A stretch of DNA of 64,000 nt. Source: Octopus vulgaris (lineage: Eukaryota). Below are positions 21,121 through 45,360 of this stretch, one piece after another. Each line of letters starts with the position of its first letter. Positions within the stretch are counted from its first letter, which is position 1. The stretch covers positions 57,474,001 through 57,538,000 of the forward strand of contig OX597820.1 of assembly GCA_951406725.2 (NCBI GenBank), given 5' to 3'. The position numbers were made by a program, and so were the translations under genes. The notes below the pieces were generated by a model that was not told the DNA's origin, made no database searches, and saw only the letters and a list, made by a program, of their open reading frames with translations.

Positions 21121-21972
21121 AAAAGAATTCTAACCTCTATGAACATAATTTGTGGATAAGGTAAACTTTTCGTGAAAACAGAAAACTTACTTTATATTTT
21201 TATCTGATATTTAATGACCGCAGCCTCACTCACGCAGTACAAAAAAAACCACTTTAAATGAAAATAATAACCAATATTTATATACTTACAAAAATAACAT
21301 ACGTGACATGAAACACAAAGAGTTTTTCTTCGTGTTCAGATTGTGTGTGTATATAAGTACGCGATGTATATATTTTGGCTATTTATATACAAGCAGTATT
21401 AGTATAAAATAGCAATACGTGTCTCATCATAAATTCAGATACACCATGAAAGACTAAATTTATTGCGGTATTAGTGTTGAGATAATGTCTCTTATGGAGA
21501 CATTTACATTTTTACATTCATACGTAAGTATATGCATCAGTGTATGTATGTATGTATGTATGTATGTATGTATGTATGTATGTATGTATGTATGTATGTA
21601 TGTATGTATGCATTATGTAAGTATGCATGCATGTATGTGTGTTTGAACGTACGTATATATATATATATATATATATATATATCTATACAATATGTTACAT
21701 TACTCGGTAGTCAAGATAAAACTCTGAGTTTCAGATGCCGAAGTGGAAATCCACAACACCATCTCATCGGTTATCTGGCTATTTGAAAACGTTATGAAAA
21801 AATATACCGTTAAAAATGAAGGGAAATTACTCTGTTATAACTCTGCTTTGCCTGCGTACTTATACATCGCTCGCATTTTTCGTCATAAAAATTATATAAA
21901 AATACATAAAAATATATAAAAATATATAAAAATATATAAAATCTTCTTGGGACATAACACAGAAAGCATGTT

Positions 21973-22605
21973 CTATCCGTTTTCTTTAGGGGACCAAAAA
22001 CGTAACAGAAATTTAGTCACATGTGGGCATGATCCGAAAAGTTCTGTCCTTGTATTTAGACATGTGGTAGGGTCTAAGCTGCTTTTCCAGATAAGCCATC
22101 TCTCCATGTCGCATAAACCGCACCTTCCGCTGCCGTTAGTATAGGGCTTACATCTGGCCAAAATCTTCCATTGTATGTTATAATCGACACCTTTATCTCT
22201 TAAAGACCAAATATGATTGGATAATTGTGTCGCTTTTCTTTTGTTCCAGTGCCTAAAGCTCAAAGTGTGGTTATTGAACCTGGCCTTGAAATTACCCTCT
22301 GTCAGGCCCACGTATTTCTTCGTCGAAACGGTGTCTTTAGTGGTTATAGAGTTTACGGTAGCTTCATATATGATGGTCTTGGACATGCAAGCTCCATTTA
22401 GCGGGCACAATTCTTTATTCCTGCATGAACAGCTGTTTTCTTCTTGTGTTTTTTGTATGTTATGATTGATTATGTTTTTAAAATTGGTAGTTGAACTAAA
22501 ACTAATTTTTAAATTGTGTCTATTGAAGAGTTTCCTATAAGCATGGTTAACTGGAAAATGTCTATCTATCAGTGCTAGGAAATATTTACCTATATTGAAG
22601 GCCAC
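21973..22605 (-). pseudogene. Penelope GIY-YIG endonuclease domain (frameshifted from RT)
   Basis: CSCRNKELCPLNGAC Cys linker, IIYEATV...YVGLTEGNFKARFNNH, CGLCDMER, LNTRTELFGSCPH. Confidence 0.9.
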
Positions 22606-22693
22606 CTCGGGTGAGTAAGGGGCGTAAACCAGATGACCTTCCTATTTCTATTATTCCTTTTCCTTATTGTTGGGCTGGTGATAGGTGTATATT

Positions 22694-23159
22694 TTATTTT
22701 TCGCTAAAACCACTATCTTTTAAAGCTTTATTATAAACTGGGGCAACGCTATTGAAGATGTCCTCATTAGATGAGAGGCTAGAAATCCTCTTACTAATAT
22801 TTTTAACTAAATTTTTGAATACTATAGGGGGATGGCATGAACCTACATTAATATAACTTAGTCTATCATTGGGCTTCCTATAAGGCTTATAAATATTATT
22901 ATTAAGATCTAAGGAAACGTCTAAGAAATTGACAACCGTCAGGTTAGTGTCTATAGTTATACTAAGTCCGAAGTGTTTCATTAACTGGATAATATCCTTC
23001 CTAAAACGATCTTGTGCTGGTCCATTTGTATTAGCTGTTAAGGCGAGGGCATCATCTTTGTAGATGGCGAAATGTACGTTAGGGAATGTCTTACCGAAGG
23101 TATCTAGGAGAAGGAGTCCAATTAGATCACAGATGCCTGCCCCATCATATGAACCCATG
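22694..23159 (-). pseudogene. Penelope reverse transcriptase, C-terminal part (truncated)
   Basis: MGSYDGAGICDLIG...YKDDALA...VNFLDVSLDL...YKPYRKPN...YINVGSCHPP. The first ~32 aa of the tracked ORF come from the inverted pLTR. Confidence 0.9.
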
Positions 23160-23424
23160 CTTTTCGGATCATGCCCACATGTGACTAAATTTCTGTTACC
23201 TTTTTGGTCCCCTAAAGAAAACGGATAGAACATGCTTTCTGTGTTATGTCCCAAGAAGATTTTATATATTTTTATATATTTTTATATATTTTTATGTATT
23301 TTTATATAATTTTTATGACGAAAAATGCGAGCGATGTATAAGTACGCAGGCAAAGCAGAGTTATAACAGAGTAATTTCCCTTCATTTTTAACGGTATATT
23401 TTTTCATAACGTTTTCAAATAGCC

Positions 23425-23487
23425 AGATAACCGATGAGATGGTGTTGTGGATTTCCACTTCGGCATCTGAAACTCAGAGTTTTATCT
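23425..23487 (+). ncRNA. Minimal hammerhead ribozyme-like motif in pLTR (mirror copy 21714-21776, minus)
   Basis: AGATAA-CCGATGA-GATG...CATC-T-GAAA-CTCAGAG-TT-TTATCT. Stem I AGATAA/TTATCT; core has U4C and one extra nucleotide. Confidence 0.6.
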
Positions 23488-24866
23488 TGACTACCGAGTA
23501 ATGTAACATATTGTATAGATAAATTTCCTCTATTTACATAATATTGAGGTCTCTTTCTTTCTTTTGTTATCTTACCGTTTTATCAATATATATATATATA
23601 TATATGTAATGCTCCAGCATTGCCGCAGTCAAATGACTGAAACAAAACAATAAAGGAATACGCGTGTGCCTTAATGCCTGTGTTTGTGCCAGCACCACCG
23701 CTTGATAGCCGGTGTTGGTATGGTTATGTCCCTGTAACGTAGCGGTTCGGCAAAGATAAAAGATACATATACATACATACATATATATATATAATATATA
23801 TATAATATATATATATATATATATATATATATATATGATATAAATATATATATGATATATATATATAATATAATATATATATGATATATATATATATATA
23901 TATATATATATATATATATATATATATATATATATATATAATATATATATGTATATATATATAATATATAATATATATGATATAAATATATATACAATAC
24001 CTATGTTTGTATCTATATGTATGTATCACTCTCTCCCTCTTCCTGTATGTATGAGTAAATATATAAATATATACATATATATTGATTAGGCGTGTCAAAA
24101 AAGTTCGATACAAATTACTGAGTTGAATATACGTTTATAACGCAACACGAATCATCAATAATGCATAGGTTACTCATAATTCTCTGATTAAGATAATCAC
24201 CAGTTCTTGTCAAAAGTTTCAATAAGTCATTTGCAATCAGTAGTTTGTCCGCGCGCATGTATGTCTGTGTGTATAAACGTATGTAAATATGTATGAGTGT
24301 GGATATATATGTTACATATGCCTGTCTGTATATATGTGTCTATGTAAGCAAATATACATGTACGTAAGTGATGTGTCTGAGAATGATTGTAAATACATAT
24401 CATATATATATATATATATATATATATATATATATATATATATATATATATACACACATATTTACATGTATATATGTATTTATGCCTATAATATGTAAAC
24501 GAGTTTGCGTGCTTGAGTGTTATATATATATATAGTGACCACTCTCTTATATTTATTTTGTAAAAATATTATAATATGTTATAAAATATTATAATAATCC
24601 AGGTTTCTCGTAGCACTAGGCCACTTGGTGTGGAATAAATATACTATTAAATTAGTATCTAATTCTCTCACCCTTATTAATTATATATATATATATATAT
24701 ATATATATATATATATATATATATATATATATATATATATATATATATATATATATATATATATATATATATATATATACATATATGTGTGCTTAACATA
24801 TGGTATAATTATAAACAGAGCAAAGTTTAGTCACTTCACCGCAGACTGAAACAAAAACGATGAATA

Positions 24867-44135: not shown

Positions 44136-44360
44136 ATTAGGTTGTCAAGAAGGTTCTTGCGGAATTTTTCATTTTGGTTTTAAATGATGTATTTTCAAAT
44201 TAATTTTCGTTAAATTACTTTGACTTTATATATCATTTTAAAACCCGTTTTTCGCTCTATCTAATCGTGTTACTTTTTTTTTTTTAATAATTAGGCCATT
44301 TTTTCCGGAACGTTTAATACAACGTGGACAAAAAGCAAATCCGCACAATTTTATTGTATT
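44136..44360 (+). mobile_element. Mariner 5' end fragment
   Basis: tattaggttgtc TIR (as at 49417) followed by a DKKQIRTILLY transposase N-terminus. Confidence 0.55.
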
Positions 44361-44471
44361 TGTGTAACAAATATAGATACTTGCTCATATATGTTCACAT
44401 CCTATATGTGTACATATATGCGCATATATGTATATATCCTGTGAACATATATGCTCATGTATGTATATATC

Positions 44472-44675
44472 CTGAAAAGTTCCTGGCATTAAGGGTATCA
44501 CGAAAGGTCTTGTTGGAGACTCGACATCGTTAGGTTCTTTTACAGGGATTAGAAAAACTGAAGGATCACTGCAACAGGTGCATGAATCTGAGAAGGCAAT
44601 ATGTTGAATAAAATCTTAATTGACTGATCCTCTAAATTAACTTACCCAAAGCCAGGACCTTTTCTGCTCGTCCTC
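44472..44675. mobile_element. Mariner-type MITE
   Basis: Inverted termini gaaaagttcctggc / gccaggaccttttc. Confidence 0.5.
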
Positions 44676-44773
44676 AAATAAACATGCATACATACATACA
44701 TACATACACACACACACACACACACACACACACACATACATATATATATATATATATATATATATATATATAT

Positions 44774-45130
44774 ATAAATGAAAGAATGGAGTTGAACGAC
44801 GATTTAACAAAATTCCTTTATTCTCGACATATGTTTCGAAGACTGCATATTCCTAATTTCGAAGGAATAAGGGGTGCATTATGCCGCCTTCTCATCAGGA
44901 AAGACAAGGAACTTATGTCAGCATCATTATCGCTATGGACTCCGTGTGGGCAGTCACCTAAAAGTTTTTGTTCATCATGATGCTGACATAAATTCCTTGT
45001 CTTTCCTGATGAGAAGGCGGCATAATGTACCCCTTATTCCTTCGAAATTAGGAATATGCAGTCTTCGAAACATATGTCGAGAATAAAGGAATTTTGTTAA
45101 ATCGTCGTTCAACTCCATTCTTTCATTTAT
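44774..45130. repeat. 154-bp near-perfect inverted repeat (44774-44927 / 44977-45130), each arm with a hammerhead
   Basis: Arms are reverse complements with about two mismatches; 49-bp spacer. Confidence 0.95.
44991..45093 (+). ncRNA. Type I hammerhead ribozyme (mirror copy about 44811-44913, minus)
   Basis: AATTCCTT.gtc.TTTC-CTGATGA-GAAGGC...GTCTTC-GAAA-CATATG-TC-GAGA.ata.AAGGAATT. Canonical core, GUC site, palindromic stem III. Confidence 0.85.
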
Positions 45131-45360
45131 TTGTATATAAAAAACACAAATTTCCACACGAAAGCGCGTGATCTCTGCCCTTGGCATGTAGCTTCAACCG
45201 TGTTTTTCTGACGTGAATTTGCTACCCGGGTATCGGTTAACCGAATTATCCATACTACGATAATTCATTTAACTACTTATATATATATATATATATATAT
45301 ATATATATATATATATATATATATATATATATATATATATATATATACACATATATATAT

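Follow-up and report, generated by a model that had tools for sequence, protein, structure and literature searches.

The window analysed here, a 64,000-nucleotide (nt) stretch of Octopus vulgaris DNA (contig OX597820.1, positions 57,474,001 to 57,538,000), contains four fold-back structures, loci 1 to 4, that carry hammerhead-like motifs. These fold-backs follow the published layout of Penelope-like element (PLE) insertions in TA runs and represent no new architecture. Each locus belongs to its own, separate high-copy family, referred to as families 1 to 4. There is a good probability that all four are two-armed Penelope-like insertions, loci 1, 2 and 4 being pieces of PLEs that bear an open reading frame (ORF) and locus 3 an ORF-less hammerhead repeat likely inserted by a PLE enzyme.

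Fold-back arms were detected at all four places by inverted-repeat alignment and blastn. The arms of locus 1 (21677-22041 and 23160-23524) match at 363 of 365 nt. Those of locus 2 align in two blocks, 36550-36673 with 37221-37344 (86% identity) and 37082-37136 with 37158-37212 (49/55 nt matching), the left arm being split by a short interspersed nuclear element (SINE) of 400 nt. The arms of locus 3 (37759-37855 and 38015-38111) match at 90 of 97 nt and those of locus 4 (44765-44930 and 44974-45139) at 161 of 166 nt. No sequence common to loci 1-4 was found by blastn, and a comparable inverted repeat occurred in 0/20 locally shuffled windows. The statement of an earlier sequence-only reading that four loci of unrelated sequence share one layout is thus borne out. 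The features of the four loci, including their parts related to the reverse transcriptase (RT), the GIY-YIG endonuclease and the pseudo-long terminal repeat (pLTR), are as follows.

21682..23161, minus strand: locus 1 tail-less arm, a 5'-truncated PLE (3' RT part, CxCx5C linker, GIY-YIG, pLTR) with its 3' end at a TA run
21973..22641, minus strand: locus 1 GIY-YIG endonuclease frame (Pfam GIY-YIG E=0.011, below the curated cut-off)
22694..23209, minus strand: locus 1 RT fragment from the SMGSYDG motif onward, in a different frame from GIY-YIG (tblastn search with the full-length ORF)
23160..23519, plus strand: locus 1 inverted arm, starting 360 nt before the tail-less end (alignment)
23425..23487, plus strand: locus 1 hammerhead-like motif with a U4C core and GAAA preceded by an extra base; its counterpart in the other arm is at 21714-21776, minus strand
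23520..23586, plus strand: locus 1 tail, 67 nt, leading into the 5' untranslated region (UTR) and ORF in tandem copies
36547..37136, minus strand: locus 2 tail-less arm, interrupted by the SINE (alignment)
36674..37073, plus strand: SINE-type high-copy repeat inserted later into stem II of the locus 2 hammerhead (75-83% matches elsewhere in the window)
37078-37085, minus strand: locus 2 hammerhead-like core, with stem III at 36612-36623, split by the SINE
37147..37356, plus strand: locus 2 tailed arm, starting at the initiator-like site of the family (offset 0; arm-end comparison)
37357..37500, plus strand: locus 2 tail, ~143 nt (at 13 loci the opposite arm stops 143-153 nt short of the tail end)
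37762..37973, minus strand: locus 3 tail-less arm of an ORF-less ~480-nt unit (L301)
37899..37956, minus strand: locus 3 minimal type I hammerhead-like motif with a 6-bp stem I, an extra A before GAAA and an AUC site
37974..38010, no strand: locus 3 junction filler, including a short local duplication (sequence)
38011..38215, plus strand: locus 3 tailed arm (38011-38112) and ~90-nt tail fading into TA (alignment)
44775..44927, minus strand: locus 4 tail-less arm with a hammerhead-like motif at 44822-44902 (alignment)
44926..45129, plus strand: locus 4 tailed arm, starting at an initiator-like TCATT site (A at 44926; arm ends)
45002-45082, plus strand: locus 4 hammerhead-like motif with a palindromic loop 3; second copy in the other arm
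45130..45278, plus strand: locus 4 tail, ~150 nt, leading to the ORF start in tandem copies

The genome searched measures 2.8 Gb and the best 40 candidates were scored per query; first-look candidates numbered 155, 623, 3178 and 2916 for families 1 to 4, figures that are no copy numbers. Across the copies of all four families, two copies of one sequence meet 5' to 5'. The order of arm, spacer, inverted arm and extension described earlier is present, but the spacer does not stand apart from the arms: one of the two head-to-head copies extends further 5', namely the left arm at loci 1 and 3 and the right arm at locus 4, and this longer stretch forms the spacer. What was called the extension corresponds to the PLE tail, which measures 67, ~143, ~90 and 151 nt in families 1, 2, 3 and 4, respectively, as compared with 30-40 bp in the Hydra-clade survey (Craig et al. 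2021, PMC8557442). The 3' ends fall at two fixed points per family, at TA runs, one arm being tailed and the other tail-less. The features of PLE insertion, i.e. a head-to-head inverted 5'-truncated copy, a tail at one end and a TA target, were all found in the four families. An inverted 5'-truncated copy with a tail at one end is drawn for PLEs in Fig. 2 of PMC8557442, in line with the inverted pLTR with an extension that the earlier reading gave as frequent in Penelope insertions. Opposite-strand hammerhead pairs lying 100-700 bp apart have likewise been read as probable truncated PLEs (Cervera and De la Pena 2014, PMC4209133).

Locus 1 had been singled out as the only one coding for RT and GIY-YIG. 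Coding sequence is present there, but it amounts to only the 3' part of RT plus GIY-YIG: the window copy begins within RT and shows two one-base losses relative to the full-length copy L182, to which its tail-less arm is 99.5% identical over 1487 nt. Full-length copies of family 1 are 2.6 kb long and 99-100% identical. In L182, a single open RT-GIY ORF of 708 amino acids (aa) ends with an intact C-terminal GIY-YIG; its translation contains RWK, DKT, the CxCx5C linker, CxxC and CxH and no CCHH. The full 708-aa ORF gave no match in Pfam. By size and motif list, family 1 can be classified as a young Hydra-clade PLE. It shares with that clade a length <3 kb, RWK, DKT, CxCx5C, CxxC, CxH and the C-terminal GIY-YIG, and also a hammerhead-like motif and the TA targets (PMC8557442). 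Since it is young and its ORF is intact, family 1 is usable as an in vitro substrate. The lengths of its arms are scattered from 100 to >1600 nt (30 loci), and three loci with one junction have common flanks. A tail-only query returned nothing for this family, so that its sample requires arms of at least 100 nt. Family 1-related copies with CTGAAGA or CCGAAGA cores occur in other loci. Contigs from four sequencing runs cover the pLTR-ORF junction of family 1, and in two of these runs depth was far greater over the hammerhead and tail than over the ORF; the sites noted for these hammerhead/tail relatives and for the copies with CTGAAGA or CCGAAGA cores are L182:3689-3855, L405:5021 and L406:102. 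In one contig of run X11, at depth 5, ORF codon ~11 is joined, through a single added base, to the position 121 nt short of the tail-less end. Neither observation was used as evidence because contigs cannot show RNA ends or levels.

For the short loci, two options had been offered: extreme 5' truncations of PLEs or a self-cleaving, retrozyme-like class. Both occur, truncated PLEs at loci 2 and 4 and a retrozyme at locus 3 only. Locus 2 can be read as a pLTR piece of an ORF-bearing PLE whose relatives run into GIY-YIG. A decayed GIY-YIG lies ~2.2 kb upstream through AT-rich sequence in L156, L157, L173 and L178 (best E 1e-11), and in L186 the tail, the hammerhead and a weak GIY match (E 0.004) all stand on one strand; RT was not found in 5 long loci of the family. 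Family 4 has the attributes of an endonuclease-bearing (EN+) PLE, with a pLTR tied to RT and GIY-YIG and an ORF start after the tail. Four of its 30 loci run upstream into GIY-YIG, L183 into RT as well, and the tail directly precedes the ORF start at 12 of 20 ORF-start loci. The upstream sequence of loci 2 and 4 leads to GIY-YIG and not back to the tail, i.e. there is no head-to-tail non-coding unit. Their fold-back points differ from copy to copy and their arms run into PLE coding sequence elsewhere, as expected for the ordinary truncation-inversion products that the sequence-only reading had set against its own proposal. The term extreme 5' truncation nevertheless describes them only in part: they are PLE pieces, but their tailed arms begin at a recurrent initiator-like site.

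Short and long copies of family 4 appear intermixed, the short ones forming no separate clade. Placing the 8 ORF- or UTR-linked rows on a tree of 43 arms takes 8 changes, against a shuffled mean of 7.5, and the window copy groups with a GIY-linked copy; the resolution of this tree is low, with 2/40 branches well supported. Family 4 differs from the Hydra clade by RWL, DKT, an Asn-rich linker and no CxCx5C seen. Its ORF carries an Asn-rich insert of >100 aa between RT and GIY-YIG (L018/L183:2371-3288), and a comparable insert is found in the Penelopes of Adineta (PMC3846280). In L007/L221 and L233, the first ~50 ORF codons are fused, at differing junctions, to a pLTR point that lies 12-17 nt upstream of the initiator-like site; such ORF deletions may seed retrozyme-like units. 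A young sister of family 4 (L361-L390) is 73% identical to it, with 1827 first-look candidates, copies 96-99% alike and the same two-arm layout.

Family 3 is of another kind. Its tail is followed by a linker of ~170 nt that leads back to the hammerhead. In a sample of 103 distinct loci out of 120 fetched, the tail-linker junction is present at 36/103 loci and continues to the next hammerhead at 26/103, with a period mostly of 470-495 nt (458-547 nt in all but 2 of 22 measures). Two same-strand hammerhead motifs were found in five of the 103 loci (e.g. L130, L197, L219). Among 30 loci chosen by the 3' part of the linker, every long-enough arm reached the linker start or the tail and none an ORF. 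The longest ATG frame of the monomer is 29 aa, with 32% GC, and its folding is stable (z=-6.0; 0/100 shuffles as low), TA-rich palindromes supplying part of the pairing. The tails diverge by 8.1% within a locus and by 11.7% between loci (7 loci). From these features, family 3 can be described as a non-coding, head-to-tail, non-LTR retrozyme with a PLE footprint. It is the sole non-autonomous family of the four and likely borrows a PLE enzyme. The retrozyme-like class suggested earlier is thus retained for locus 3, but its replicating unit is the head-to-tail ~480-nt monomer and not the fold-back. As many family 3 copies continue past the predicted cut site, their template would be circular or an uncut multimer.

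Several points weigh against this description of family 3. Arrays with >2 same-strand hammerheads were absent from the 103 loci. At L207, a weak RT remnant (E 4e-5) abuts the linker. No ORF-bearing parent was found in the 103 loci; as the best 40 candidates per search were scored, a rare one could be missed. PLE protein remnants lie near four family 3 loci: those at L133, L140 and L328 are not colinear, and the fourth is the weak one at L207.

Family 3 resembles the animal non-LTR retrozymes (Cervera and De la Pena 2020, PMC7229834; Li et al. 2026, bioRxiv 10.64898/2026.07.22.740005) in being non-coding, low in GC and self-paired with a type I hammerhead. A PLE origin and mobilisation of retrozymes has been proposed in both papers. 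Unlike those retrozymes, family 3 is old (~12% between copies), was seen up to ~1.5-2 units only and has a minimal rather than canonical hammerhead, and its two-arm, one-tail PLE footprint is without counterpart in the available descriptions of PMC7229834 and 10.64898/2026.07.22.740005. Non-autonomous PLEs of Chlamys, e.g. MRC1, are also ORF-less and form pLTRs and head-to-tail insertions (PMC8557442). In L312:970-1597, a 74-nt piece is repeated seven times in tandem, ending at the family 3 tail-less end, with a short TA run closing each. Locus 3 itself occupies a TA run flanked on either side by a copy of a further repeat, family X, the two copies facing each other tail to tail.

37501..37700, plus strand: family X copy with a hammerhead-like core at 37576; locus 3 was inserted into its TA run (2688 first-look candidates)
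38227-38432, minus strand: second family X copy (alignment)

Family X has a hammerhead-like CTGACGA..GAAAC motif and a 3' end abutting TA. Among 12 fetched copies, 3 start at the same TTTCAATA word and 3 extend further upstream.

Hammerhead-like motifs are readable at all four loci by sequence reading and copy alignments. The Rfam models detected no hammerhead family at any locus and returned only hairpin microRNA models and microsatellite noise. The earlier placement of a minus-strand hammerhead in or next to each left arm holds as far as motifs do occur there; at loci 1 and 4, however, the motif is present in both arms, at locus 2 it is split by the SINE, and at locus 3 it lies only outside the paired part. 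The core CUGANGA..GAAA..NUH with stems I-II and a palindromic loop 3 is kept in 39/41 copies of family 4. In family 3, 51/70 copies keep the core but have an additional A, and in families 1 and 2 most copies show U4C, the core of locus 1 reading CCGAUGA and the most numerous relatives of locus 2 having the same substitution. The motifs resemble the minimal hammerheads of metazoan PLEs, which are type I, have a palindromic loop 3 and reside in pLTRs (PMC4209133), from which they differ by U4C in families 1 and 2 and by the extra base before GAAA in families 1 and 3. U4C is a natural variant with lower in vitro activity (PMC3088659). Isolated hammerhead-like cores at 24879-24905 (minus strand), 7399-7422 (minus), 27783-27816 (plus) and 26769 (plus) are probably decayed pLTRs of other families.

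Among the 40 scored matches to a tail-only query for family 4, with the window copy left out, 12 arms extend as far as 202 nt upstream and 6 of them stop within 5 nt, a pile-up with P about 1e-4 in a hazard-aware scan. In the sister family, six of ten arms stop within -5..+10 of the base homologous to the family 4 site, and in the unrelated family 2, 10/17 stop within -6..+16 of a TCAGTT word, which is the only TCAKT in 360 nt. The pile-up sites lie 73-82 nt before the hammerhead core in the three families, and the tailed arms of window loci 2 and 4 start at them. A TATA-like word, TATAA, is found at -28 of the family 4 site, and neither family 2 nor family 4 has a hairpin on the 5' side of its site. 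In family 3, arm ends do not pile up (P=0.96). Hammerhead cleavage was rejected as the source of the 5' ends, as arms beginning at the cut were found neither in family 4 (51 nt upstream) nor in family 3 (148). The pile-up suggests run-off at an RNA 5' end after internal initiation, not random truncation. Initiator-like words in pLTRs have been reported (PMC3846280, PMC2377424); no run-off model was found in the available PLE literature.

A tentative model, to which we give somewhat less than even chances, can be built on these ends. The PLE RT would normally start twice in the upstream pLTR and run to the capped RNA 5' end, as for strong-stop DNA. The short hammerhead fold-backs (~0.5 kb), which number thousands, would stem from failed jumps, full-length and partial-tandem copies with a regenerated pLTR would come from jumps to the downstream pLTR, and retrozymes such as family 3 would reflect the same machine on a circle without 5' end. 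The favoured reading of the four loci as two-armed insertions includes the following mechanism: the GIY-YIG domain would cut both strands of a TA run, each DNA end would prime its own reverse transcription, one from the RNA tail end and the other from the tail-less end, and the two cDNAs would be joined at their 5' ends. At loci 2 and 4, the initiator within the upstream pLTR would mark the beginning of the RNA, so that any copy begun there would run off after ~200 nt, leaving ORF-less fold-backs of 0.4-0.8 kb, and longer copies would jump to, or start in, the downstream pLTR. For family 3, the template would be a circular or multimeric 480-nt RNA; copies would therefore pass the ribozyme and meet no 5' ceiling.

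Parts of this mechanism have counterparts in the Poseidon element PAc of the green anole, whose protein cuts both strands at AT-rich DNA in vitro and starts at two internal RNA sites bounding the tail, provided that ORF sequence is present downstream (Frangieh et al. 2024, PMC11167929). Two start sites defining the tail and an AT-rich double-strand cut would be common to PAc and the families described here, and PAc insertion is independent of hammerhead cutting. In vitro, however, the start sites of PAc were not seen to differ between strands, whereas here a tailed arm is paired with a tail-less one in each two-armed insertion. The available text of PMC11167929 does not discuss run-off at the RNA 5' end. 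The Penelope promoter is located in the pLTR, for whose regeneration there is 'no obvious mechanism' (PMC2377424).

Other observations count against the favoured mechanism. The family 4 pile-up reaches only P=0.02-0.03 by a cruder test, and its site was chosen with the data in view. In family 2, the sample overlaps the loci of the first motif sighting, and a divergence of 15-20% makes the ends less sharp. In the sister family, a TATA word is absent and a hairpin of moderate strength (-9 kcal/mol) precedes the site on its 5' side. No extra G was seen at family 4 junctions, and arm ends do not pile up at the predicted ribozyme cut in family 3 or family 4. A clear ceiling is lacking in family 1, where 21/30 arms extend past 200 nt, and even where a pile-up exists most arms stop before the site, scattered, and 30-50% of those reaching it continue. 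The last two points, together with the frequent microhomology or stuttered filler at junctions, would be explained if short copies were random 5' truncations of cDNAs begun in the downstream pLTR and the pile-up a pause or repair hotspot. This explanation is a serious one, if somewhat doubtful, since the pile-up is found again at the corresponding base of the sister family, whose identity is only 73%, and at an initiator word of family 2, which is unrelated, each time 73-82 nt before the core, and since two of the three sites lack a hairpin.

The same 5' ceiling would arise if solo pLTR copies acted as SINE-like masters, with transcripts from their own internal promoter being copied again in trans. 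In a rotifer case, pLTR sequences were by themselves enough for mobilisation in trans (PMC3846280), and short ORF-deleted tandems such as L007 and L233 exist in family 4. Such masters are nevertheless improbable, as short copies do not cluster apart from ORF-linked ones in the poorly resolved tree, and the PAc protein needed ORF sequence downstream of its start sites (PMC11167929).

A tailed arm is paired with a tail-less arm in 67/67 insertions with both 3' ends readable, the resolvable pairs numbering 14, 13, 22 and 18 in families 1, 2, 3 and 4. Pairs were counted by eye after removal of duplicates, and the count leaves out loci without a partner arm or with an unreadable end (14/30 in one sample, 44/54 in another). 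As most samples were picked by tail, they can exclude tail-tail pairs only; the linker-picked sample of family 3, selected for neither end, gave 10 mixed and 0 like pairs, with partner arms <40 nt in two cases. Partner arms are closer to each other than to the arms of other loci in 25/26, 27/30 and 15/17 loci of three sets, and both arms can be traced to the same sequence variant. Against this reading, gene conversion may also account for their likeness. The tail has been described as often present at one end only (PMC8557442, PMC3846280), and no count of pairs was found in the available literature on PLE tails.

The published proposals hold that the second arm arises by self-priming or fold-back, on an antisense template in PMC3846280, and that endonuclease trimming of an intermediate leaves the one-sided tail (PMC3846280, PMC8557442). 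Self-priming would explain both the variants common to partner arms and the palindromic junctions, e.g. of L244, L260 and L268. A fold-back copy must however nest in its template arm, yet the tail-less arm reaches further 5' at locus 1 and, among family 4 pairs, in 8, against 5 with the longer tailed arm. When the families are compared pair by pair, either arm can extend further 5', which argues against one arm being a fold-back copy of the other; both tail ends are moreover RT start sites in vitro (PMC11167929). Self-priming is thus an unlikely origin of the second arm. At the head-to-head joint of L013, L067, L342 and L371, a 10-20 nt word is stuttered, in 3/4 next to the putative RNA start; such words may be repair-polymerase filler or reiterative copying by a telomerase-like RT.

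That the three short loci form one non-autonomous 'ribozyme fold-back' class with the hairpin as replicating unit is very hard to maintain: short ORF-less copies do far outnumber long ones in families 2, 3 and 4 and many tailed arms share one start, but the partner arm end varies between copies (58-245 nt and longer), the sole identical junctions (L342-L344) were rejected as a replicating unit, being segmental duplicates with common flanks, families 2 and 4 lead into GIY-YIG, and no clade of short copies stands apart from the ORF-linked ones.

The PLE layout itself is already known, and retrozymes riding on PLEs have been proposed in print; the two counting rules, one tail per insertion and a 5' ceiling, are possible new content for a retrotransposon class with an unsolved cycle. 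If the ceiling is the capped RNA end, most short PLE remnants derive from the front of the RNA rather than its rear, and the in vitro system already available would allow pLTR regeneration to be tested.

Elsewhere in the window, the minus-strand frames 49520-49933 and 33225-33683 gave no match in Pfam; by their motifs, they resemble mariner/Tc1 transposase remnants. Two degenerate palindromes without hammerhead cores, at 56350-56454 and 62366-62576, are possibly old DNA-transposon remnants.

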